Shown: positions 6,217 through 54,052 of the stretch, in pieces
How the letters are laid out: each line of letters begins with the position of its first letter
Numbering within the stretch: position 1 is the stretch's first letter
DNA from: Candidatus Levyibacteriota bacterium
GTDB taxonomy: Bacteria; Patescibacteriota; Microgenomatia; Levybacterales; UBA12049
Direction: 5' to 3'
NCBI GenBank assembly: GCA_016182235.1
Contig: JACOXT010000003.1
Coordinates: 258,209 to 322,208 of the forward strand
DNA length: 64,000 nt
Program-made: the position numbers and the translations under genes
The notes under the pieces: generated by a model
Told to the model about the DNA's origin: nothing
The model's input: the letters and a program-made list of their open reading frames with translations, nothing else
Database searches by the model: none

Positions 6217-6813
6217 ATGAAAAGCAAAATTTTTGTCTCTCTATTAATTTTGTCTTTATTAATTAGCCTTACAGATTTTGCTTCAAAAGCGTCTGCAATA
6301 GAAGCTCCTAATTTTCCATTATGTACAAGTCCTCAAGGAGAAGTTCTCGCAAGTTACTCGAGTGGAACGCATGGAGTTCCAGGCGATTCAACAACCTATT
6401 TGGGAGAGGATGTTGTTTTTAAAGTAAATGAAAATCAAGTTCTTCAGTGTTTGTGCACGATTGATGGTCAAGGCATCCAGACAAACTGGTGGCAATTTGA
6501 GGCCCTTTCTATAGATCAAATAGAAACTCTCAAGAGTCAAGGGTGGATTTTTGTGCCGGATGGATCTTTGTGGGGACTTAAATCTGTGCCCTATTTTGCT
6601 AAAAATGCAGGATTTGCCTGTAGACCCCCCGGACAGCCTGGTGCAGGAGGAGAAGTAATTTCTGTAGGAGCAAAAGGAGAAATATTAGGTGTTTCTCTTG
6701 CTCCAACTGGAAATATAGTATATATTTTAGGAGCCTTTTTGATAGGAGGAATTTTAATATTAGCAGGCGTACTTCTAAGATTAAAAACAAGAAAACATCT
6801 CGGAATAAAGTAA
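6217..6813 (+). CDS. secreted surface protein with a C-terminal sortase sorting signal (LAPTG + TM + basic tail)
   Basis: I take the start at the internal ATG that gives the signal peptide MKSKIFVSLLILSLLISLTDFASKASA. The C-terminus reads LAPTG-NIVYILGAFLIGGILILAGVLL-RLKTRKH, and a sortase gene lies directly downstream. Confidence 0.7.
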   Translation: MKSKIFVSLLILSLLISLTDFASKASAIEAPNFPLCTSPQGEVLASYSSGTHGVPGDSTTYLGEDVVFKVNENQVLQCLCTIDGQGIQTNWWQFEALSIDQIETLKSQGWIFVPDGSLWGLKSVPYFAKNAGFACRPPGQPGAGGEVISVGAKGEILGVSLAPTGNIVYILGAFLIGGILILAGVLLRLKTRKHLGIK

Positions 6814-6947
6814 GTTTTTTTTCCACAAGATTAACATCGCTTGGTGTTTTAATTCTTTTTTTAGGAGGAATACTTATTTATCAGCATTATACGCCTCAAA
6901 GACCCCCCTTCAAGAATTTTAAACCCACTTCACAGGGGGAGCGTCAA

Positions 6948-7331
6948 GTGAGAGTTCTAATACCGTCATTGAATATGGATCTAGAGATTTTTCCTGCAAA
7001 AATTGTAAATAATAGGTGGGAGATAACTGCTCAAGGCGTTTCATATCTTTCCTCGTCACCGCTTCCGGGAGAAAAAGGAAATAGTGTTTTATACGGCCAT
7101 AACTGGACTAATATTTTGGGTAATTTAATAAAAATAAAACCAGGAGAGGAGATAGTTATAGTTTCTAATAGAAATAATAAGAGGACTTTTGTGGTGGAAC
7201 ATATATCCGTTGTGGATCCAGAGAATACCCAAATACTTGCAAATACCAGCGATAGACGAATAACTTTATATACTTGTTCAGGTTTCTTGGATTCGAAGCG
7301 TTTCGTCGTGACCGCTCTTCTTAAATCTTAA
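6948..7331 (+). CDS. sortase (cysteine transpeptidase)
   Basis: Catalytic His context LYGHNW, catalytic Cys in ITLYTCSG (TLxTC motif), and a downstream Arg (SKRF). The GTG start is preceded by AGGGGGAG. The frame is open further upstream and encodes a TM-like segment with no canonical start (see findings). Confidence 0.75.
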   Translation: MRVLIPSLNMDLEIFPAKIVNNRWEITAQGVSYLSSSPLPGEKGNSVLYGHNWTNILGNLIKIKPGEEIVIVSNRNNKRTFVVEHISVVDPENTQILANTSDRRITLYTCSGFLDSKRFVVTALLKS

Positions 7332-7389
7332 TTTATTTTAAGTCACTTTAGAAAATATGAAGCTTGAATTATAATTATTTTATACTCTT

Positions 7390-7977
7390 ATGGAAAACGA
7401 GATTAAAAAAGCTGTTGAAATATTAAAAAGAGGAGGGATAATTATTTTTCCAACGGACACTGCTTATGGAATAGGTTGTAGAATAGATAATGAAAAATCA
7501 ATAAAGCGTTTATTTGATATTCGGAAAAGACCGGTAAAACAGGCAACTCCTGTTTTGGTAGACTCAATTAAAATGGCGCAACGTTATTTACAGCCAATTC
7601 CGATAGGGGTAAAAGAGGAATTAATGAACAAGTATTGGCCGGGGGCACTCACTATAATACTTCGTTGTCTCAGAACAAAGGTCCCAAGTTTAGTAAGAGG
7701 AGGAAGAGGCACCCTTGGAGTAAGAATGCCAAATCATGAAATTATAAGGACTGTCATTGGGCGTCTTGGCGTTCCGGTTCTAGCCCCTTCTGCGAATTTT
7801 CATGGCAATAAGACGCCATTCAGATTCAAAGATTTAAATCCTAAACTCGTAAGCAAAGTAGATTATGCATTGCAACACGATTCAAGTTTAGGTAAAACTG
7901 TTTCGACAGTGATTGACTGCTCAAGAAAACCTTGGAAAGTAATAAGACAAGGAGCGATAAAAATTTCTAAGTTCTAA
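7390..7977 (+). CDS. tsaC: L-threonylcarbamoyladenylate synthase (TsaC/YrdC)
   Basis: YrdC signature GGIIIFPTDTAYGIGC; ~195 aa; adjacent to tsaB. Confidence 0.85.
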   Translation: MENEIKKAVEILKRGGIIIFPTDTAYGIGCRIDNEKSIKRLFDIRKRPVKQATPVLVDSIKMAQRYLQPIPIGVKEELMNKYWPGALTIILRCLRTKVPSLVRGGRGTLGVRMPNHEIIRTVIGRLGVPVLAPSANFHGNKTPFRFKDLNPKLVSKVDYALQHDSSLGKTVSTVIDCSRKPWKVIRQGAIKISKF

Positions 7978-7994: not shown

Positions 7995-8306
7995 ATGACT
8001 ACATTGATTATTGATACAGCTAATAATAGACCAATAACTGTAGGGGTGAAAATTAATGGTGAAGACTTTAAGAGTACTGAAAATATAACTTCAAGGAGTT
8101 CACGAATTGTTCTTTCTATGATTGATTCAATTTTGAGGAAACATAAGATAAGATTAAGGGATATAGATGGGATTTTGGTAAATACAGGACCAGGGTCGTT
8201 TACTGGCTTGAGGGCAGGGATCGCTATTGCCAATGCCTTATCATATACCCTAAAAGTTCCAGTTAATGGCAAAAAATTAGGCGCAAAAATCACTCCTAAA
8301 TATTAG
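7995..8306 (+). CDS. tsaB: tRNA t6A biosynthesis protein TsaB, truncated (N-terminal domain only)
   Basis: GPGSFTGLRAGIAIANAL motif. Only 103 aa. Confidence 0.65.
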   Translation: MTTLIIDTANNRPITVGVKINGEDFKSTENITSRSSRIVLSMIDSILRKHKIRLRDIDGILVNTGPGSFTGLRAGIAIANALSYTLKVPVNGKKLGAKITPKY

Positions 8307-10299: not shown

Positions 10300-10908
10300 A
10301 TGACCCAAAAACCCAAGACAGATAATGAATGTCTCGCGGAGCGAGATCCTGCTTCGCAGGAGAAAATCACTTCCCAGAAAACAGTATTTAAAACAAAGCT
10401 TTTTAATGTTGAGGAAATAGATTATTTAGATAAAAATAAATACAAGAAGATAGATTTTGTTGCCAAGCGTATATCAACAGTTACAGTATTACCGCTAACA
10501 GATGACAATGAAATTTTTTTAGTGCGTCAATATAGAAGAATGTTAAATAGGACTACGCTTGAGGCTGTTGCCGGATATATTGAAAAACGAGAAACCATAT
10601 TGGAAGCCGCAAAAAGAGAACTTAAAGAAGAGACAGGCATAATAGCAGTACAATGGGAGGAGATAGCAAGAGTAGAAATGGCAGCTAGTGCATTTAATGG
10701 GAAATTACACTTGTTTATGGCAACTGGTTTGGATTATGAAGAATCCACGCCTGATGAAGAAGAAGAGATATCAGTGATTAAAATACCCCTTTTGGATGCA
10801 GTAGAAAAAGTAATGGCTGGAGAGATTAATCATACAGACAGCATGATTGGAATATTAATGCTGTATAAGATAAGAGCTCCAAGAAAAACAAGACAATCAA
10901 AATCATGA
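10300..10908 (+). CDS. NUDIX hydrolase
   Basis: Nudix box GYIEKRETILEAAKRELKEETGI. Confidence 0.8.
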   Translation: MTQKPKTDNECLAERDPASQEKITSQKTVFKTKLFNVEEIDYLDKNKYKKIDFVAKRISTVTVLPLTDDNEIFLVRQYRRMLNRTTLEAVAGYIEKRETILEAAKRELKEETGIIAVQWEEIARVEMAASAFNGKLHLFMATGLDYEESTPDEEEEISVIKIPLLDAVEKVMAGEINHTDSMIGILMLYKIRAPRKTRQSKS

Positions 10909-10921
10909 AAGTTCTATAACT

Positions 10922-45983: not shown

Positions 45984-46034
45984 CGGATCGTCTAATGGCC
46001 ATGTCATGCGACATGGTCCTGTCGAATGACAGGA
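45984..46034 (+). other. copy of the tRNA-Gln 5' part (GGATCGTCTAATGG) followed by twin 18-nt hairpins
   Basis: CCGGATCGTCTAATGG matches nt 3-18 of the tRNA-Gln 330 nt downstream at 15 of 16 positions. It is followed by CCATGTC-ATGC-GACATGG and TCCTGTC-GAAT-GACAGGA. There is no matching 3' acceptor strand, so it is not a tRNA. Confidence 0.55.
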
Positions 46035-46040
46035 TAGGAT

Positions 46041-46307
46041 ATGTTTTATTATGTTTACATTTTATTGTTAAACAATAATAAGTTGTATACTGGGAGCTCA
46101 GGAGATCTAAAAAGAAGAGTTAAATATCATAATAATGGGTTAGTTAAGTCAACCAAAAACTATAAACCGGTTAAACTAATTCATTACGAAGCTTATTTAG
46201 AAAAAGGTGATGCTTTGAGACGAGAAAGGTATTTGAAGACAACAGAAGGGAAAAGATTTTTAAGACAACAAATTAAATTATTACTTAAGAAGATTGACTA
46301 TAAATAA
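46041..46307 (+). CDS. GIY-YIG nuclease superfamily protein (UPF0213/YhbQ-like)
   Basis: YYVYILLLNNNKLYTGSSGDLKRRVKYHN matches the GIY...YIG...R...H(N) pattern; 88 aa. Confidence 0.8.
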   Translation: MFYYVYILLLNNNKLYTGSSGDLKRRVKYHNNGLVKSTKNYKPVKLIHYEAYLEKGDALRRERYLKTTEGKRFLRQQIKLLLKKIDYK

Positions 46308-46312
46308 ACAAT

Positions 46313-46386
46313 TACGGGATCGTCTAATGGTAGGACGTAAGACTCTGAATCTTACTATCTAGGTTCGAATCCTAGTCCCGTAGCCA
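46313..46386 (+). tRNA. tRNA-Gln (anticodon CUG), CCA encoded
   Basis: Manual cloverleaf. Acceptor TACGGGA/TCCCGTA (U1-A72), D arm GTCT/GGAC, anticodon arm TAAGA-CTCTGAA-TCTTA, T arm CTAGG-TTCGAAT-CCTAG, discriminator G plus CCA. Confidence 0.85.
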
Positions 46387-46404
46387 AGACGTGCAGATAA
46401 ATAT

Positions 46405-46440
46405 GCTGTTTCACTTTTCAGGTGAAGGTTCGGTGAAGAT
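46405..46440 (+). repeat. cassette-boundary element, copy A (divergent)
   Basis: GCTGTTTCACTTTTCAGGTGAAGGTTCGGTGAAGAT; hairpin TTCAC...GTGAA. It lies 19 nt after tRNA-Gln. Confidence 0.45.
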
Positions 46441-46479
46441 CCATAATGAAACTTACCTTTGGTTTGGTATAATAAAAAT

Positions 46480-47622
46480 ATGAAAAGGAAAAGTATTTAC
46501 TCTTTAATTATTTTGGTTGCATTAGTTGCATTGGGATTGTCTGGTTTCTTCAACAAAGACTCATCTCTATCGGAACGCAAAGTTATCTGGAAACACAATC
46601 TAGAGACTAAAGGCATAATTAGAAGTGCTAATCTTTATGCAAAAGAAGATCTAATTTACGTGAGTAGTTATTACGGGCCTTTTTTACTTGAAATTGACAG
46701 TTCATCTGGACAGATAAAAAGAGAGTTTAAAGTAGGAGAAGGAATTAGGAGCTCAGATCTAACTGATAAAATTTTTTACTATAATACAATGGACAGATAT
46801 GACATAAAAAATAATTATATTCATGCTCTCGATATTTCTACAGGAGTTGAAAAGTGGACGCAAAAAATAGAAAACCCAGAAGAAGAATATGTCCCACTTT
46901 CTCTAAAAGCAGATGTCGGGAAAGTCTATCTTAATGAAGGATTCAGAAAAGTTCATGCTCTAGATAGTGAAAACGGAAAAAAATTATGGAGCTTCGGGAT
47001 TGAACTTTCTACAGAAAAGGTAATCAATGAGTCACCGCTTATAAGTACAGGAAAATCTGTAGTTATCTTGGGTTTTGATGATGGTATAGTGTATGCACTT
47101 GATTCAGAATCAGGCAAGGAATTATGGAAGTTTGACACTGATCATCCCAGGCATCCCAGGCCCGAGGAAATTCTAGTTACCAATAAGATAGTTTATGTTG
47201 CATCTTATAGCACTACTGGGGATACTGTTTATGCCCTCGATACTGAAACCGGACAGATTGAGTGGCAATTTTCAACCGATGGTAACCCAAACACTTCGAT
47301 GACATCTCATGAGGACATTTTATTTGTAGCAAAAGCACATGGGTATTTACATGCTGTTGATGGTAGGAGCGGCAAGGAATTATGGAAGTTTAAAACTGAC
47401 GATTTTCCTAGTAATCTTGTAGTTTCAGGCAATCGAATCTATTTTGGTAAAACTGAATATCGTGAACCGTTTCCCGCTGGGGGGCATATTTACGCTGTCG
47501 ATACTAAAAATGGAAGGCAAATATGGGACTATGAGACTCAAGGTACGATATCAGGCGTAGTTGCTACTAATGGTATTGGATACTTTTCTATAGGTAATGG
47601 AGAAATGATAGCAGTAAAATAA
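46480..47622 (+). CDS. PQQ-like beta-propeller repeat protein with an N-terminal anchor
   Basis: Repeated G(K/Q)ELWKF...(Y)ALD blades. ATG chosen 6 nt after TGGTATAAT; the track TTG start lies inside the promoter. Confidence 0.7.
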   Translation: MKRKSIYSLIILVALVALGLSGFFNKDSSLSERKVIWKHNLETKGIIRSANLYAKEDLIYVSSYYGPFLLEIDSSSGQIKREFKVGEGIRSSDLTDKIFYYNTMDRYDIKNNYIHALDISTGVEKWTQKIENPEEEYVPLSLKADVGKVYLNEGFRKVHALDSENGKKLWSFGIELSTEKVINESPLISTGKSVVILGFDDGIVYALDSESGKELWKFDTDHPRHPRPEEILVTNKIVYVASYSTTGDTVYALDTETGQIEWQFSTDGNPNTSMTSHEDILFVAKAHGYLHAVDGRSGKELWKFKTDDFPSNLVVSGNRIYFGKTEYREPFPAGGHIYAVDTKNGRQIWDYETQGTISGVVATNGIGYFSIGNGEMIAVK

Positions 47623-47867
47623 TTTTCGATATTATTTCCATAAAACCCCAGACTTAATTGAAAGTTCTTGTATGTGAATAGGTGATTGATACAATGACAC
47701 TTGTATTAATTTCGAGCAAAAATCGTGCGCACAAAAAAATAGCGGAGGCGCGGCGGGGGGCACATTCGGCAAGCTCAGTGTAAAGGCGCCGCGCAACATT
47801 ACAAGCCGAGCGGAGCGAGGCGAGATAACACATTGAGGTTCGACATTTTCGATAAGCGGCCAGCCAA

Positions 47868-48257
47868 ATGGCAACTGGGGTGAACCCAAGACTTCTTAAA
47901 GAAAAAATAATGCCTAAATTTGATATTCCGTTAGTTTTCTCCCAAATAGTTTCAGTTTATGATGTTCCTGACAAAGACAAGGGGAAACCGCATCCTTTTA
48001 TGGTAGAAAAGATTTTATCTGCACAACGCATTTCTGCGGAAGAAACTGTGCTTGTAGGAGATGCGAGAAACGACGTACTGATGGCAAGAGCAGCCGGTGT
48101 TACTCCAATTGTTGTGCTTACTGGTCATCTTAATGAGGCAGAAGCAAGAGGATTGGGAATTGCCCATATTATTCCAGATGTTACACATCTTGAGAGCGTA
48201 TTATCTCGCCTTCAGCGCTTGGAAGGACAAACAATAAATGGTAAGGAAAGACTGTAA
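47868..48257 (+). pseudogene. truncated duplicate of the HAD hydrolase gene (C-terminal ~128 codons only)
   Basis: Nucleotide-level similarity of roughly nine in ten positions (by eye) to 50337-50723. It lacks the N-terminal DxD catalytic motif, and homology breaks at ~47871 next to a GC-rich island. Confidence 0.65.
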
Positions 48258-48262
48258 AAGAA

Positions 48263-48297
48263 GGTAGCGAGGCTGTTTCACCTTCCAGGTGACGATC
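48263..48297 (+). repeat. cassette-boundary element, copy B
   Basis: GGTAGCGAGGCTGTTTCACCTTCCAGGTGACGATC, 5 nt after the stop of the truncated HAD gene. Confidence 0.6.
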
Positions 48298-48305
48298 TTT
48301 AGAGT

Positions 48306-48728
48306 TTATTGTGATTTGGGAAGGTCAAGGTTTTCTTCGATAGCATCAACGCGTTTTTCGAGTTTACCATGATGCATTATTACTTCAGAAAGAATTACAG
48401 ATATATCTTCCTGCGCTCTATCTAACTTTTTATCAACATTGTCAATCTTTGAGCTAAGTTTGTGATCTACGGCATCGATTTTTGAACTTAACCTTTTATC
48501 TACAATATCAATCTTTGAGCTTAACTTTTGATCTACAGCATCAATTCTTGAGCTGAGTTTGTGATCTACGACATCAATCTTTGAACTTAGATTTTTATCA
48601 ACATTATCAATCTTTGAGCTAAGGTTTTCATCTGCAAAATCGATCTTTGAACTTAGTCTATGATCGGTTACTCCAACTTCTTCTTTGACAATTACCCTAA
48701 TTTGCTGCAAGTCGTTTTTTGTTAACAT
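48306..48728 (-). CDS. coiled-coil-like protein built from eight 11-residue repeats (LSSKID-x-VD-x-K)
   Basis: 140 aa. Central HRLSSKIDFADENLSSKIDNVDKNLSSKIDVVDHKLSSRIDAVDQKLSSKIDIVDKRLSSKIDAVDHKLSSKIDNVDKKL. Confidence 0.6.
   Translation of the reverse strand: MLTKNDLQQIRVIVKEEVGVTDHRLSSKIDFADENLSSKIDNVDKNLSSKIDVVDHKLSSRIDAVDQKLSSKIDIVDKRLSSKIDAVDHKLSSKIDNVDKKLDRAQEDISVILSEVIMHHGKLEKRVDAIEENLDLPKSQ
48399..48668 (-). repeat. 33-bp tandem repeat array (about 8 units) encoding the 11-mer repeats
   Basis: The unit TCAATCTTTGAGCTAAGTTTGTGATCTACGGCA recurs with few substitutions. Confidence 0.8.
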
Positions 48729-48826
48729 ACAAGTACTATACTTTTTTTATGAAATTCTGTCAATCTATAAAATAGGTTCTAATGTATTCAAATACCCGCA
48801 GCCAAAATCTAAATCTAGCTATTCCA

Positions 48827-48860
48827 GGTGGCGAGGCTGTTTCACCTTCCAGGTGACGAT
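48827..48860 (+). repeat. cassette-boundary element, copy C
   Basis: GGTGGCGAGGCTGTTTCACCTTCCAGGTGACGAT; it differs from copy B at one position over 34 nt. Confidence 0.6.
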
Positions 48861-48966
48861 TTCACTCCTCTCCAGTATGCTCAAGATACATTCGTCAATG
48901 TCTTACCGATGTGGTCAGCCAGTACAATCTATTGACTAATAATTTGTAATATGAAAAACTGGACCT

Positions 48967-49890
48967 ATGGATCCAAATCAACAAGCTCAATCAATTCAAC
49001 CAGAAACTTTTCTGAAACCAGATTTACCACAACCAATTAATGAAATTCCTTCTTCGAGAAATAAATTGAAATTAATTTTGTTAATAATTACCCTTTTGGT
49101 TATAGTTGGACTGGGGACATATTATTTAAGCGTAAAACAAAATAAATTAAATCAACAAGTAACCATAACTCCCACTGTTGCTCAGCTATCCCCAACGCTG
49201 ATAGAGACAAATACGCAGCAGAAAAATATTAAAATATCTCCTTCTGTTCCATCCATAAAGCCATCCAACACGCCAATCCCTCCAACTTCTACCACAGCTC
49301 CAACTGCGATCCCATTAGGGATTTATATGCACTTACTTGACAATAAGACTGGAGAACCTATCTCAAGTGATGGGATAAGAATTACCATAAACGGAGAAGG
49401 ACTTAACAGAACTGTTGAAAATCAAGCAGAAGTTTATTTTGAGCTTTCCTCCCCCGGAACTTATGAAGTTATTCCAAATAGTCCATCAAAATATCAACCC
49501 GATGTAGTTTATTGCAATGACAATAGTAAATGCTTTGCTACTTCGTCCGTATTTTGCGGTACAAAAGTAATAATCACTCAAGGAAAAATTGACGTTTGGT
49601 GTAAATATGAATATTTGGATGATGTTAATCTTAGCTCAATAGACCCTAACTCTGGATCGGTTGGAAGCGCAATTACCCTTCGAGGATCCGGATTTGGTAC
49701 ATCAAAAGGATCTGTCAGTTTTTATAATTCAAACGGGCAAGCTTCAGGAGGAGCACCAATAACCAGCTGGACTGACATAGAAATAAAAGCCAATGTTCCA
49801 GGAATTCTTGCAGGAAATTCTACTTATCAGGTTGAAGTTGAAAGTTATTATGGATTCAAAAGCAACAGAGCTACTTTTACTGTTAAATAA
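48967..49890 (+). CDS. membrane-anchored protein with a Pro/Thr-rich linker and a C-terminal IPT/TIG-like domain
   Basis: N-terminal TM segment, PT-rich spacer, and a C-terminal SIDPNSGSVGSAITLRGSGFG...VSFYN...YQVEVES pattern typical of IPT/TIG. Confidence 0.55.
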   Translation: MDPNQQAQSIQPETFLKPDLPQPINEIPSSRNKLKLILLIITLLVIVGLGTYYLSVKQNKLNQQVTITPTVAQLSPTLIETNTQQKNIKISPSVPSIKPSNTPIPPTSTTAPTAIPLGIYMHLLDNKTGEPISSDGIRITINGEGLNRTVENQAEVYFELSSPGTYEVIPNSPSKYQPDVVYCNDNSKCFATSSVFCGTKVIITQGKIDVWCKYEYLDDVNLSSIDPNSGSVGSAITLRGSGFGTSKGSVSFYNSNGQASGGAPITSWTDIEIKANVPGILAGNSTYQVEVESYYGFKSNRATFTVK

Positions 49891-49916
49891 ATTAAACTAT
49901 CATCCTTAAAGAATTA

Positions 49917-49950
49917 GGTGGCGAGGGTGTTTCTCCTTTCAAGCGGAGAC
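49917..49950 (+). repeat. cassette-boundary element, copy D (compensatory stem variant)
   Basis: GGTGGCGAGGGTGTTTCTCCTTTCAAGCGGAGAC; the stem is TCTCC/GGAGA instead of TCACC/GGTGA. Confidence 0.55.
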
Positions 49951-50009
49951 TTCTATCGTAGAAAAAAACAGATTCTGGCTGCTAGCGATGAATTTGATAT
50001 AATCGCGTT

Positions 50010-50723
50010 ATGATCAAGCTTATAATATTTGATTGGGATGATGTCTTTACTAAGGGCTCAACAGAAGGTTACTTTAGATCTTATCATCAAGCGTTAGTTT
50101 CTGTTGGAGTAAATTTAAGTCCAGAAGAAGAGAAAAAAAGAATTTTAGCCAAATGGGGTTCTCCTGTTGAAGAAGAATTAGGCGAACTATTGCAAGAGCA
50201 CCCGCAGCTTCTTGATGAAGCTGTAGTCAATTACGAAAGAATTCTTTTTAGTAATACGTTTGTCGATTGCCTTTCTCTCGTTGAAGGAGCACGATCATTA
50301 TTAAAGCGACTAAGCGAAAATTATACACTTACTGTTGCGACTGGTATAAATCCAAGACTTCTAAAAGAGAAAATAATGCCTAAATTTGATATTCCGCCAG
50401 TTTTCTCCCAAATAGTATCAGTTTATGATGTTCCTGACAAAGACAAAGGAAAACCACACCCTTTTATGGTAGAGCAGATTTTGACTGCGCAACATGTGCT
50501 ACCAGAAGAAGCTGTGCTTGTAGGAGATGCGAGAAACGACGTACTGATGGCAAGAGCAGCGGGTGTCACTCCAATAGTGGTATTAACTGGTCATTTGAAT
50601 GAGACAGAAGCAAGAGAAATGGGAATTCCCCATATTATTCCAGATGTTACACATCTTGAGAGAGTATTATCTCACCTTCAGCGCCTGGAAGGACAAACAA
50701 TAAATGGTAAGGAAAGACTGTAA
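50010..50723 (+). CDS. HAD-superfamily hydrolase (phosphoglycolate phosphatase-like)
   Basis: Motif I IIFDWDDVF and motif IV VGDARNDVLMA. TATAAT lies 6 nt upstream of the ATG. Confidence 0.8.
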   Translation: MIKLIIFDWDDVFTKGSTEGYFRSYHQALVSVGVNLSPEEEKKRILAKWGSPVEEELGELLQEHPQLLDEAVVNYERILFSNTFVDCLSLVEGARSLLKRLSENYTLTVATGINPRLLKEKIMPKFDIPPVFSQIVSVYDVPDKDKGKPHPFMVEQILTAQHVLPEEAVLVGDARNDVLMARAAGVTPIVVLTGHLNETEAREMGIPHIIPDVTHLERVLSHLQRLEGQTINGKERL

Positions 50724-50752
50724 AACCGATACAGTCAAATATTATTAATTCT

Positions 50753-51277
50753 ATGGAAATCATCAGGGCAAAACACTTTATTCTACGGCCTTTTAAAAAG
50801 GGTGATGAGGAGTCGCTGGTAAAAAATATTAACAGCAAAAATATTTATCGTGCAACTCTTAATATTCCATATCCGTATACAATGAAGGACGCACTGCAAT
50901 GGATAAAGAAAAATGAAGATCTTCAAAAACAAACTTCTAGAACGTCAATTAATTTCGCTATTGACATTAAGGGAGATATTGTAGGAGGCATTGGTTTATC
51001 ATATATAGAAAGTTATAAGGCAGAGATTGGATATTGGCTTACAGAATCTTATTGGGGAAAAGGAATCGTGACAAAAGCAATAGGAAAAATAACTCAATTT
51101 GGGTTCGAACATTTAGGACTGAAACGGATTTATGCTGATGTGTTTTCTTTTAACAAAGCATCAATGAGAGTGTTGGAAAAGAATGACTATCAGCTCGAAG
51201 GTATACTTAGAAAAAATGTTTTAAAAGATGATAGATTGTTAGATGAATACCTTTACGCAAAAATTGTTAAAGGGTAG
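50753..51277 (+). CDS. GNAT N-acetyltransferase (RimJ/RimL-like)
   Basis: FAIDIKGDIVGGIGL...WGKGIVTKAI...N..S.RVLEKNDYQLEG pattern. Confidence 0.8.
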   Translation: MEIIRAKHFILRPFKKGDEESLVKNINSKNIYRATLNIPYPYTMKDALQWIKKNEDLQKQTSRTSINFAIDIKGDIVGGIGLSYIESYKAEIGYWLTESYWGKGIVTKAIGKITQFGFEHLGLKRIYADVFSFNKASMRVLEKNDYQLEGILRKNVLKDDRLLDEYLYAKIVKG

Positions 51278-51324
51278 TAGCGGGGCTATTTCACCTTCCA
51301 AGTGACGATCTGCAGGTGACAATC
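51272..51324 (+). repeat. cassette-boundary element, copy E (overlaps the GNAT stop codon; extra GGTGACAATC half-repeat)
   Basis: GGGTAGTAGCGGGGCTATTTCACCTTCCAAGTGACGATCTGCAGGTGACAATC. Confidence 0.55.
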
Positions 51325-51358
51325 TCACATTACTCGTATAAAATAAACTTAATGTAAA

Positions 51359-52462
51359 ATGAGATCTCACGAGTTTGAGTCTATAAACCTTGAAAGATCT
51401 AATACTAATATAAGCATTACCAGGGACTTAAGGGAAAAGTGCTTTATTAAAGATGGGTCTCCTTTATGGTGGGGTACTGATCATGCTCCCGATCCCAGAG
51501 AATATATTTCATTCGATGAATTTATAGGAAGGTTAGTCTATTTAGGTAATTGTCGTGTAACATCTTCCGATGCTGCGCTACTAGGATTGCCATCTAGGGA
51601 GAAAGATGTATACTTATATCCTGATCCACGAGTGCCAATATCTGTTATTGAATTGGACGTTAATGGTCAAAACTTGCCATTGTTGATAACTGTAAGGCCC
51701 TACCATGAGAAAGAACTTGATTCTAGTCCATTTCCTGTCTTTCTGAATGAACACAGATCTATAGAGGAACTTCCTGATTATATTACTTCAGGTGGAGTTA
51801 TAAACCTTCCAGAGCATTTTTTTCCTCATATAAGAGGTTTGTTTGTTGGTAAAAGAGGAAATAATCATTTTTGGTACCCACTGCATACAAGTAGTTGGAG
51901 AGATTTTGGTAGAGACATTGAACAAGCTTTAGCGGAAAAGAAGCTATCTTTTATTGGGCTATATCAACCTCCCATGTCAGACGAAAGAACTTATGGCGAA
52001 GTCTGGAATGAATTAAAAGGAAAAGGTGATTTGGTTGAACAGAGAAGCCCAAAATGGATAGATTTTCCTAGCGTTGAAGTATCTGTTGAGGAATTTATTA
52101 AAGATCATCAAAGATCTGATTTGTTGCTTTTTTATCCCATACGACTTGAAGGTATAGATAATACCTTGCCACTAGTAATTACTTCAAAGACGCACAAAGA
52201 AAGTAAAGTTAGAAGACCAATTGTATTAGGTATTTATGCGGAGAATGGTTTAAGCGGAAGATCTAGGAGGAGTGGAATACTACGAATAAAACAACTACAA
52301 CTTGCAGAAGATATAAGTAGAGTTATTTCTGAGGATTTTGGAATTCCGGTGGATACTTTACTATTCACTCCTCAAAAAGGAAGACCAAAGTATCAACGTG
52401 TCTCTTCTACAACTTTGGATAGCGAGGTTGTTTCTCCTATTTTAGGTGTGGGGTGTAAATGA
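51359..52462 (+). CDS. hypothetical protein (orphan, 367 aa)
   Basis: Long ORF with no motif I recognise. Its stop overlaps the next start (ATGA). Confidence 0.45.
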   Translation: MRSHEFESINLERSNTNISITRDLREKCFIKDGSPLWWGTDHAPDPREYISFDEFIGRLVYLGNCRVTSSDAALLGLPSREKDVYLYPDPRVPISVIELDVNGQNLPLLITVRPYHEKELDSSPFPVFLNEHRSIEELPDYITSGGVINLPEHFFPHIRGLFVGKRGNNHFWYPLHTSSWRDFGRDIEQALAEKKLSFIGLYQPPMSDERTYGEVWNELKGKGDLVEQRSPKWIDFPSVEVSVEEFIKDHQRSDLLLFYPIRLEGIDNTLPLVITSKTHKESKVRRPIVLGIYAENGLSGRSRRSGILRIKQLQLAEDISRVISEDFGIPVDTLLFTPQKGRPKYQRVSSTTLDSEVVSPILGVGCK

Positions 52463-52908
52463 ATAAGAGCAACAAAACAATAACGATCTGCTCTAGTGCC
52501 TCGTTTTACAAAGATGTACTTGAGATTGAGAGAAAGCTTAAGAAATTAGGATTTCAAGTTAAGATCCCCCAAACTGCATACAAGATGCAAAAAAGCGGAA
52601 ATTTTAAGGTTGAGGATTATAAAACTTGGTTTAGAAATAAGGATGACTATAGGAGAAAGACAAAGCTTATGAATGATCATTTCAAGAAAGTAATTCAGGG
52701 AGACGCCATTCTTGTAATAAATAAAGAAAAGAAGGGAATCGCAGGATATATAGGAGGAAATACTTTAATGGAAATGACTTTAGCTTATTATCATAAAAAG
52801 AAGATTTTTATATGGGATGAGATTGATAGTAGCTTGCCTATTGAAGAAGAAGTAAGAGGGTTGAATCCAATCTTTGTTGAGAAGAATTTATCAAGAATTA
52901 TTATCTAG
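52459..52908 (+). CDS. nucleoside 2-deoxyribosyltransferase-like (NDT/DUF4406-type Rossmannoid) protein candidate
   Basis: ITICSSASF N-terminal strand, DAILVIN, and GYIGGNTLMEMTLAYYHKKKIF (G..T..E...A). This resembles the NDT-like superfamily layout. Recognition by eye only. Confidence 0.4.
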   Translation: MNKSNKTITICSSASFYKDVLEIERKLKKLGFQVKIPQTAYKMQKSGNFKVEDYKTWFRNKDDYRRKTKLMNDHFKKVIQGDAILVINKEKKGIAGYIGGNTLMEMTLAYYHKKKIFIWDEIDSSLPIEEEVRGLNPIFVEKNLSRIII

Positions 52909-52966
52909 TGATGTATAACAACTTTATGGATTTGGCGAAGAGGCATTGTGTGTCGAGAGGAGGAAT

Positions 52967-54052
52967 CTAGAACCAGCGCCTGTATTTGAAATACCAAAGC
53001 ATAGGAAGAACAGGCAGTATTGCTCCTAAAATAACAAGAATAAACATTGTATAAGGTCCAAAGAAATTCCAAGATCCGGTTTGTATTCCTCCGGGTAGGA
53101 AAACGTTCATTCCGTAAAAGGTTCCTATGACTGTAGCAGGAACGGTAAGCGTAAAAAGTATAGTCAGAACCGTCATAATTTCATTGGTTCTTGATCTTAA
53201 CAAGAATTCATTGCTTTCCGATATGCCCTCTATTAACTCTTTGCTATCTTCAAGTCTATGACCTATTTTTTTTAAATGGTCATGAACATTACTCCAATAA
53301 GACGTCATATTGCCGTTTAATGTTCTATATTCGCCTGCCTCAAGATGTTTAAAAAGAGGCAGAATTGGTTTTATCATAGTGTGGAAAAAAACAAGGTTTC
53401 GTCTGGTGATAGAGATTTCCTCAAGAGCTGTTTTGGTTCTTTTGTTTTCGAGCTCCTGGTCAATTTTTTCGATCATTACAATAAGTTCGTTGATTATCGG
53501 AAAGCAGTTGTCTACGAGCGCATCAATTATTTTATATGCAAGAAATACGCTTCCCTGGCCCATAAAGTAGTCCCTATTATGAAGAGTTTTTTGACATTGA
53601 GAAAAAATATGGTTGATAGGAGTAAGGACCCCTTCATGAAGAACTACAATGTATTCTTTTCCAATAAATAAATTGACATGGGATGTTAGAATTCTTCTAG
53701 CGCTAACTGAGGTGAAATGAAAAATTGGCAAAGAGGAAAGAGCCGCATGAGGAATATTGAGAAGCTGCGCTATTGAATGTCTGTATCCTTTTTCATTATT
53801 GCCGTTTCCATTACCATTTGTAGCATTTGAATTTACGCCGTTGCCGTTTTGTTTAAAAAAAGGAAAATCCAAAACAATAAGAGTATAATTTGGATACTCT
53901 TGTATTTTTGGCACTTGAGTTCTATGAATATAGTCTTCGAGATCCAAAGAATTGAAGCCAAAGTTTTTCTTGAGATCTTTAATCTCGAGTTCATGCGGAT
54001 TGGTTACATCTACGAATGAAAACTTATTAAAGTTAACTGTTTGAGCGTTCAT
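52967..54052 (-). CDS. corA: magnesium/cobalt transporter CorA
   Basis: C-terminal two TM segments with the YGMNV (GMN) motif; 361 aa; an Asn/Gly-rich insertion near residue 70. Confidence 0.85.
   Translation of the reverse strand: MNAQTVNFNKFSFVDVTNPHELEIKDLKKNFGFNSLDLEDYIHRTQVPKIQEYPNYTLIVLDFPFFKQNGNGVNSNATNGNGNGNNEKGYRHSIAQLLNIPHAALSSLPIFHFTSVSARRILTSHVNLFIGKEYIVVLHEGVLTPINHIFSQCQKTLHNRDYFMGQGSVFLAYKIIDALVDNCFPIINELIVMIEKIDQELENKRTKTALEEISITRRNLVFFHTMIKPILPLFKHLEAGEYRTLNGNMTSYWSNVHDHLKKIGHRLEDSKELIEGISESNEFLLRSRTNEIMTVLTILFTLTVPATVIGTFYGMNVFLPGGIQTGSWNFFGPYTMFILVILGAILPVLPMLWYFKYRRWF

Follow-up and report, generated by a model that had tools for sequence, protein, structure and literature searches.

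What is the short hairpin-bearing element that recurs among accessory-type genes between a tRNA-Gln gene and corA on contig JACOXT010000003.1 of a Candidatus Levyibacteriota bacterium? The question arises from a 64-kb window, by which we mean the whole stretch of this contig that was analysed (64,000 nucleotides), and a sequence-only reading of the window had likened the arrangement to a cassette array or to tandem islets. The answer reached here is a different one: the element, about 34 nt in length, is with high probability the repetitive extragenic palindromic sequence (REP) of a REP/RAYT system (also called "REPtron"; RAYT, REP-associated tyrosine transposase) in Candidatus Levybacteria and neighbouring Microgenomates. 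As such it would be a small DNA repeat, parasitic or domesticated, that owes its spread to a dedicated transposase acting on single strands. The observations behind this answer are the inverted pairs of the element at RAYT genes, the co-diversification of element and enzyme, the RAYT fold and catalytic motifs of the partner protein, and the dispersed, orientation-independent copies in relatives.

Six copies of the element of ~34 nt are present in the window, all of them on the + strand. They are listed here together with the features that frame them, and the E-values given are those of nhmmer against a cross-genome profile of the element.

46313..46386, + strand: tRNA-Gln(CTG), the conserved left boundary of the interval and not part of the REP
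46387..52966, no strand: hypervariable interval from tRNA-Gln to corA, which holds all six copies
46393..46440, + strand: copy A, degenerate, 19 nt after tRNA-Gln (E 2e-7)
47871..48259, + strand: truncated duplicate of the 3' part of the HAD gene, ~90% identical to 50337-50725
48262..48297, + strand: copy B, canonical (E 1e-12)
48826..48861, + strand: copy C, canonical (E 4e-12)
49916..49952, + strand: copy D (E 2e-9), with arms TCTCC (49932-49936) and GGAGA (49945-49949) around an 8-nt loop
51275..51325, + strand: copy E (E 2e-9), which overlaps the GNAT stop codon
52417..52451, + strand: copy F, degenerate and intragenic (E 4e-5)

Copies A to E had been placed correctly, on the + strand, by the sequence-only reading, which overlooked copy F and suspected a degenerate copy near 52935, where no match was obtained even at E<=10. 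Its remark that the element had not been noticed elsewhere in the window agrees with both the pattern and the profile searches, which found no copy in the other 58 kb. Pattern searches of the window returned 4-5 matches, compared with 0.01-0.06 expected from shuffles. The copies are spaced 0.5-1.9 kb apart, all in direct orientation, and span 6.1 kb; by our own calculation, the chance of finding six copies inside 6.1 kb of 64 kb is ~5e-5 and that of one shared orientation for all six is ~0.03. The base composition shows no island.

The individual copies differ in how they sit among the genes (open reading frames, ORFs). Copy A has lost the 5' AGGTRGCGA box, forms the hairpin TTCAC/GTGAA, and is followed by a partial tandem repeat of its right arm. 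Copy B starts 4 nt past the stop codon of the truncated HAD gene and ends 8 nt short of the 3' end of a convergent gene, and it differs from copy C, as had been noticed before, by a single mismatch (1 position in 35). Copy C lies between the divergent gene starts at 48728 (- strand) and 48967 (+ strand) and is thus not 3' of any ORF. The extra half-repeats that had been reported in C and E are present, namely a partial left arm in C and a duplicated right arm in E (CAAGTGACGATCTG / CAGGTGACAATCT); in the latter, the original right arm is mutated (AAGTGA) and the tandem duplicate CAGGTGACAATCT that follows restores pairing in the predicted fold. Copy F makes up the last ~15 codons of a 367-aa ORF, with the next ORF starting directly at its edge, so that gene ends are now overlapped or supplied by some of the copies (E and F). 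Copies B, C, and E have the window-specific tail GGTGACGAT in common, and some window copies have probably arisen by local copying, which is the simpler explanation for the co-orientation because these three share that tail. A replication-strand bias was considered as the cause of the co-orientation and rejected: across the loci outside the window, the REP lies on the G-rich strand in 7 cases and on the C-rich strand in 9, which is no bias.

Across genomes, alignment and the nhmmer profile define a sharply bounded unit of ~34 nt with the consensus AGGTRGCGAGGCTRTTTCACCTTYCAGGTRGCGA, whose primary sequence is kept despite unrelated flanks. An AGGTRGCGA box is found on both sides of the small hairpin CACCT-TYC-AGGTG; these direct boxes are 24-25 nt apart and strongly conserved, and the GT(A/G)G within the box is nearly invariant at unit positions 3-6, ~11 nt from the foot of the stem. 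The stem itself comprises 5-6 bp (CACCT/AGGTG) with a 3-nt loop and is kept with changed arms in copy D and in the element types of the relatives' loci L019, L030, L032, and L035. The hairpin TCACCT-TCC-AGGTGA, the TCTCC/GGAGA arms of copy D, and the direct GGTRGCGA boxes on both sides, all of which the sequence-only reading had described, are real. That reading had also proposed compensatory change in the hairpin, and some was found: in an alignment of 28 sequences the inner four pairs are invariant, 21 sequences have C-G and 3 have A-U at the fifth pair (both sides changed), and the covariation score of 0.169 (0.112 in shuffles) was reached by 0 of 500 shuffles, with slid controls lower. The hairpin structure is maintained, but the support is modest because most of the stem never varies.

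Searches of Rfam over 46000-53500, both at the gathering threshold and at E<=1, matched only two tRNAs, and no match was obtained in viral contigs and plasmids. The element could be translated as GSEAVSPSR* in frame 1 and as VARLFHLPG in frame 2, the latter being in frame with HAD beyond its stop in copy B. An origin as a coding remnant was nevertheless rejected since B, E, and F are not in the same frame relative to their upstream ORFs and since an intragenic copy in a relative (L007, see below) is of the REP type native to that genome.

It was further observed that at the exact 3' edge of many copies the right arm or the tail is duplicated in tandem, over 8-23 nt and, in L035, in as many as four units. 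Such 3'-edge micro-duplications were seen at the following places:

window, 46427-46440 and 51300-51325
L005, 2150-2180
L006, 40-70
L009, 6620-6650
L027
L030, 9900-9950
L032, 9890-9950, 7080-7100, and 8075-8095
L033, 9900-9960 and 10705-10725
L035, 6560-6620

They suggest a mechanistic footprint, either of the cleavage and rejoining point or of hairpin-promoted slippage.

The behaviour of the element outside the window was assessed with one degenerate pattern spanning copies B to E, which was searched for in the GTDB genome set and in JGI metagenomes. Save for a few high-GC chance hits, the matching contigs are low in GC (0.32-0.40) and belong to Patescibacteria/Levybacteria. In these relatives, the element also occurs singly, beside core genes and in either orientation: in L005 it follows glgA in antisense, in L001 it adjoins the gene for RNase HII, and in L007 it lies between two minus-strand genes, antisense to its neighbours. 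Several copies may occur in one relative, then on separate contigs or at distant sites (L001 and L003; L021 and L024). A REP-like sequence with 3 mismatches in 33 is even located in frame inside an ORF for a DegT-like aminotransferase (L007 1653-1683, the same as L019 803-833), where it encodes EVAKLFHLPGG in the N-terminal region; its type is the one found on the flanks of the RAYT gene of the same genome. Since solo copies are found by core genes, in both orientations, and inside an ORF, the element is a dispersed repeat that behaves neither as a terminator nor as a cassette boundary.

Three further loci deserve mention as observations on the copies in relatives. In L001 (the same as L023 and L017), 60-nt direct repeats with 1 mismatch (1406-1465 and 2145-2204) surround the genes of a Phd/YefM antitoxin and a RelE/ParE-like toxin; within the repeats, which are on the opposite strand to these genes, is a REP-like variant whose hairpin differs (AGGTAGCGAGGCTATTTCGCCGTTCGGCTGA). 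In the Daviesbacteria contig L032, copies at 6431-6463, 7094-7112, and 8090-8108 separate small ORFs just upstream of the RAYT gene, adjoining a YD-shell/Ntox33 toxin gene and DUF4279/DUF6984 genes, and thus give the same cassette-like look as in the window. The Levybacteria-type REP is also present, at low GC, in L004 and L006 (CAYZZF010000016 and CAYZZF010000028) of a metagenome-assembled genome (MAG) labelled 'uncultured Gammaproteobacteria', a label that is probably a binning or labelling error.

A simpler explanation is that the copies are transcription terminators, as the sequence-only reading had itself suggested, or hairpins that stabilize mRNA 3' ends, with a function at the RNA level rather than mobility as the primary one. 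Copies B, D, E, and F are indeed at or just past ORF ends, the small hairpin is conserved, and passages of PMC3733652 describe REPs elsewhere as acting as 3'-untranslated-region elements. However, no copy has a T tail or is among the terminator-like sites of a terminator scan, folding as DNA yields just -1.5 to -4.8 kcal/mol with non-significant z-scores, and conservation is mainly one of primary sequence, including ~15 unpaired bases. Moreover, the orientation relative to genes is not fixed: copy C is placed between divergent starts, and the copies in L005 and L007 are antisense to neighbouring genes. As the element is also absent from all other gene ends of the window, in the 58 kb outside the array, we regard a primary role of this kind as improbable; a secondary contribution to the stability of mRNA 3' ends is conceivable.

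The genetic partner of the element is a transposase gene. In L009, two inverted copies (6644-6680, - strand; 7387-7419, + strand), whose AGGT heads point inward, bracket an ORF of 221 aa (6717-7382) that matches Pfam Y1_Tnp (PF01797) with an E-value of 7e-8 and 33 bits against a cut-off of 23. The copy 3' of this gene is identical to copy B of the window at 31 of 33 bases. Homologues are found directly beside the element in L018, L025, and L019, where the element is a related one with a longer stem, AATCCACCT-GGG-AGGTGGATT. Altogether, the gene is located between inverted copies in L009, L019, L025, L030, L032, L033, and L035, and L018 has the 3' copy only. Among NCBIfam models, NF047646 (REP-associated tyrosine transposase) fits all four proteins first compared best, with E-values from 1e-12 to 5e-14, and the IS200 model scores far worse. 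The motifs PNHFH (HUH motif) and SRYIHLNP (Tyr motif) are invariant. An AlphaFold model (predicted local distance difference test, pLDDT, 90.8) has as its top PDB match in Foldseek 4ER8_A (E 1.4e-6), which is the E. coli RAYT in complex with a REP hairpin and is ~14% identical to the ~222-aa protein in the structural alignment; the TnpA proteins of IS608 and ISDra2 follow at ~1e-3. Searching the PDB by single sequence returned nothing relevant, and by profile weak ISDra2 matches alone. Homologues of ~222 aa number at least 2,886; they come from Levybacteria, Daviesbacteria, and Gottesmanbacteria and bear only the name "transposase" in the sources, and each protein cluster is represented on a few contigs only.

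The association was also examined in the reverse direction, for which four more homologues (L030, L032, L033/L034, and L035/L036) were picked by protein sequence alone. All four turned out to be flanked by an inverted pair of a lineage-specific version of the element, with the arms AACCT/AGGTT in L030 and L035, ACACCT/AGGTGT in L032, and the canonical arms in L033; CCACCT/AGGTGG is also among the arms of the reverse test. Because the flanking versions are lineage specific, element and enzyme co-diversify. The gene furthermore keeps its chromosomal neighbours across genomes at 78-85% identity: it is found between prfA and ftsEX in L030 and L035, whose proteins are 85% identical, and between the pilin and prepilin peptidase genes in L009 and L033. 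This conserved context in two genome pairs fits a vertically inherited, single-copy gene, as which RAYTs have been described (PMC5581495).

Two observations concern the immediate surroundings of the RAYT gene. In front of the gene, a conserved TTGACA (CCT[C/G]TTGACA) directly adjoins the upstream REP at its head (L009 6681-6716; L025 upstream of 1703; L030 and L033 upstream of 10001), and the upstream REP may thus overlap the promoter of the transposase. When L033 is compared with L009 (7565-7677), a HepT/MNT toxin-antitoxin pair is seen to be inserted just 3' of the RAYT's downstream REP, and this insertion is bracketed by a duplicate of ~115 nt of the 5' end of the prepilin-peptidase gene (10802-10916; 11718 onward).

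These loci also allow a judgement of whether the enzyme belongs to an ordinary, active insertion sequence (IS) of the IS200/IS605 type, of which the solo elements would be decayed ends or derivatives resembling palindrome-associated transposable elements (PATEs). With IS608, ISDra2, and their derivatives resembling PATEs and miniature inverted-repeat transposable elements, the Levybacteria system shares the Y1 HUH fold (a Pfam Y1_Tnp match and structural likeness to both TnpA proteins) and the catalytic motifs, and the recognition of a sub-terminal hairpin in single-stranded DNA with a nearby guide or tag may be likened by analogy. The low copy number of the element and the NF047646 scores, which stay under the curated cut-off, point in the same direction. 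On the other hand, the flanks are inverted copies of one 34-nt unit instead of same-strand left-end and right-end hairpins, tnpB is absent, and the protein of ~222 aa is extended at its C-terminus. There appears to be a single copy of the gene, in a syntenic position at the identities given above, its clusters are each confined to a few contigs, and the solo 34-nt units far outnumber it. As both the best structural and the best NCBIfam matches are RAYTs and not IS200, we attach little probability to an ordinary IS.

The REP/RAYT identification agrees with what is known of REPs of the GTAG type, which are 20-40 bp long with stems of 5-13 bp, frequently form clusters, mostly lie downstream of ORFs with some intragenic units, have a tag that can degenerate to GTRG or GTGG, and flank RAYT genes (PMC3733652). 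The element matches these published traits in length, stem, a candidate GTRG tag, clustering, post-ORF position, intragenic units, and RAYT flanks. Compared with the systems of E. coli (REP and bacterial interspersed mosaic elements, BIMEs, with TnpA-REP, PDB 4ER8) and of Pseudomonas/Stenotrophomonas, it shares the short extragenic repeat with a small stem-loop and a putative 5' GT(A/G)G tag, the dispersed solo copies that mostly follow ORFs and are occasionally intragenic, the Y1 HUH gene between inverted copies, the co-diversification, and the synteny of the enzyme gene. The differences start with the host: the known GTAG REP hosts are Proteobacteria, Cyanobacteria, Chloroflexi, and the PVC group (as listed in PMC3733652), whereas Levybacteria are a candidate-phyla-radiation lineage with genomes of ~0.6-0.8 Mb. 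In addition, the element has a second AGGTRGCGA box past the stem, the stem has just 5-6 bp, 3'-edge micro-duplications are frequent, and the protein, of ~222 aa, has only the above-mentioned identity to 4ER8.

Other features weigh against the identification as a REP. The candidate GT(A/G)G tag does not abut the foot of the hairpin but is ~11 nt away from it. In the window, the copies are singlets in one orientation with genes between them and not inverted doublets (BIMEs or REPINs, that is, REP doublets forming hairpins); no such arrangement was found in the window, and inverted pairs were seen around RAYT genes only. The copy number of the element appears low against the tens to hundreds of classical REP families, as on a 720-kb contig of a relative the exact pattern matched just 2 times and nhmmer added one copy, at the flank of the RAYT gene. 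The NF047646 scores amount to 45-52 bits, which is under the curated cut-off of 80, and the hairpin, as described, folds weakly and covaries modestly, with most of its stem invariant. Finally, no RAYT gene was found in the 64-kb window (tblastn, nothing at E<=10), and among the best 120 RAYT homologues none comes from a contig of 600,876 nt, the length of the contig from which the window was taken.

On the REP/RAYT reading, the following mechanism is proposed. A single-copy, chromosomal Y1 HUH transposase of ~222 aa (the RAYT), bracketed by two inverted copies of the element, would recognize the element in single-stranded form through the hairpin CACCT-loop-AGGTG plus the 5' GT(A/G)G-containing box AGGTRGCGA and would nick and rejoin the strand through a 5'-phosphotyrosine intermediate. 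Solo copies would thereby be seeded into tolerant extragenic DNA, and the hotspot of gene flux that lies between tRNA-Gln and corA would have collected six of them. The binding, cleavage, and dissemination of the element by the RAYT are proposed by analogy with E. coli TnpA-REP, which binds the single-stranded hairpin and the 5' GTAG tag, nicks via a phosphotyrosine intermediate, and can transfer strands (PMC3479197). This genome presumably still encodes a putative RAYT outside the window.

The hotspot itself can be recognized by comparison. Relatives found through CorA keep Lon-CorA on one flank and tRNA-Gln on the other (at the equivalent place in L040, L041, and L042), and beyond tRNA-Gln the order SNase-DAGK-GluRS-peptidase S11-AspRS follows. 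The genes between CorA and tRNA-Gln, however, differ in every Levybacteria relative examined: Pterin_4a, His_Phos_1, and HAD in L040 (11063-12837), SNase/LTD, AdoMet_dc, and DUF2000 in L042 (11039-13561), and orphans, DUF6899, and GNAT in L043 (3085 onward). What the sequence-only reading had implied, a variable stretch beside tRNA-Gln, is thus borne out: the flanks are shared, the genes between them are wholly different, and the interval is a true tRNA-adjacent gene-flux hotspot, in view of which no integrase was seen. A search of the relatives' tRNA-Gln-CorA interval for the element found no copies there; as these intervals are equally variable without it, gene flux does not need the element.

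Within the window, most of the gene labels assigned to the interval before are backed by Pfam (PQQ propeller, truncated HAD, IPT/TIG, HAD, and GNAT), while an 'NDT-like' label for a 149-aa protein could not be confirmed, neither this protein nor the 367-aa one having a Pfam match. The HAD segmental duplication corresponds to the 3' 389 nt of the HAD gene, and its upstream copy, which is without the 5' part, has its right edge 2 nt away from copy B. The duplication is a place where short-read contigs from this organism break off; Logan contigs from three samples (SRR12113420, SRR12113430, and SRR12113383) have an identical gene order, break at repeats, and are hence uninformative on polymorphism.

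Could the copies take part in the gene flux? It is conceivable, yet in our judgement quite unlikely, that the co-oriented REPs act like the same-strand ends of IS200/IS605 elements and that the RAYT moves the gene units between them as single-stranded circles. Hints in this direction are the co-orientation, the edge of the HAD duplication, the toxin-antitoxin pair bracketed in L001, and the 3'-edge micro-duplications. If this were true, the RAYT-moved units would constitute an HUH-transposase-driven gene-cassette system in candidate-phyla-radiation bacteria that builds the tRNA-Gln hotspot.

The cassette array proper, in which the element would be an attC- or att-like site and a recombinase encoded elsewhere would insert and excise ORF units by tRNA-Gln, is very unlikely. 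Like integron attC sites and chromosomal cassette arrays, the element is a structured repeat between short units of accessory ORFs (GNAT, HAD, and orphans) in a region that is hypervariable among relatives, and its copies in the window are all co-oriented; the HAD duplication ending 2 nt from copy B and the L001 toxin-antitoxin pair between 60-nt direct repeats with a REP-like variant would also suit such a system. Nevertheless, the misfit to integron attC that the sequence-only reading had pointed out is seen in all copies: they are without RYYYAAC/GTTRRRY cores, are 34 nt long versus 57-141 nt for attC, and are no imperfect palindromes with R''/R' ends. The further remark that the window has no recombinase is in line with a Pfam scan, in which no integrase (IntI) was found among the ORFs in or next to the array, the scan having covered those ORFs and not the rest of the window. 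In relatives, copies are single, beside core genes, in both orientations, and inside an ORF; the demonstrable genetic partner is a Y1 HUH transposase and not a tyrosine or serine recombinase; and the Logan contigs of the three samples show the same order and no polymorphism. The likeness to cassette arrays or tandem islets is thus not supported, and the cassette-array reading is not needed because the hypervariable interval of relatives carries no REPs. That the element is an operator whose two direct AGGTRGCGA boxes bind a regulator of the accessory genes is hardly credible, as the strong conservation of these boxes 24-25 nt apart and the position of several copies 35-105 nt upstream of ORF starts are outweighed by neighbouring genes that are unrelated across genomes, by copies in convergent intergenic regions and inside ORFs, and by a consistent association with a transposase gene in the form of inverted pairs.

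Identified as a REP, the element reveals no new kind of cassette system. Its significance lies elsewhere: REP/RAYT systems have so far been characterized almost wholly in Proteobacteria and a few other phyla, and no description of such a system in the candidate phyla radiation was found in the literature searched. The at least 2,886 Y1 homologues, for which the cognate REP was checked at the examined RAYT loci only, indicate that Levybacteria, Daviesbacteria, and Gottesmanbacteria, whose genomes are ultra-small and streamlined, harbour a large REP/RAYT family. Annotators can thereby name a 34-nt motif that recurs, and also genes labelled just "transposase", and REPs are flagged as a cause of assembly breaks and of gene-end remodelling in such MAGs. 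For biochemistry, a compact, sequence-defined pair of REP and enzyme becomes available, which has an odd tag-to-stem spacing and two direct boxes and whose 3' micro-duplications may show where cleavage or joining takes place.

Two minor features of the interval were observed in passing. The segment at 47700-47870, between the PQQ gene and the truncated HAD copy, is much richer in GC than its surroundings (~36% GC); it was considered as a structured RNA and rejected, with a fold z-score of -0.6, no Rfam match, and no copies in the window or the fetched loci. The 140-aa protein encoded at 48306-48728 on the - strand is made up of at least six tandem repeats of 33 nt (11 aa) of the form LSSKID.VD.K and shows weak, below-threshold apolipoprotein-like Pfam matches.

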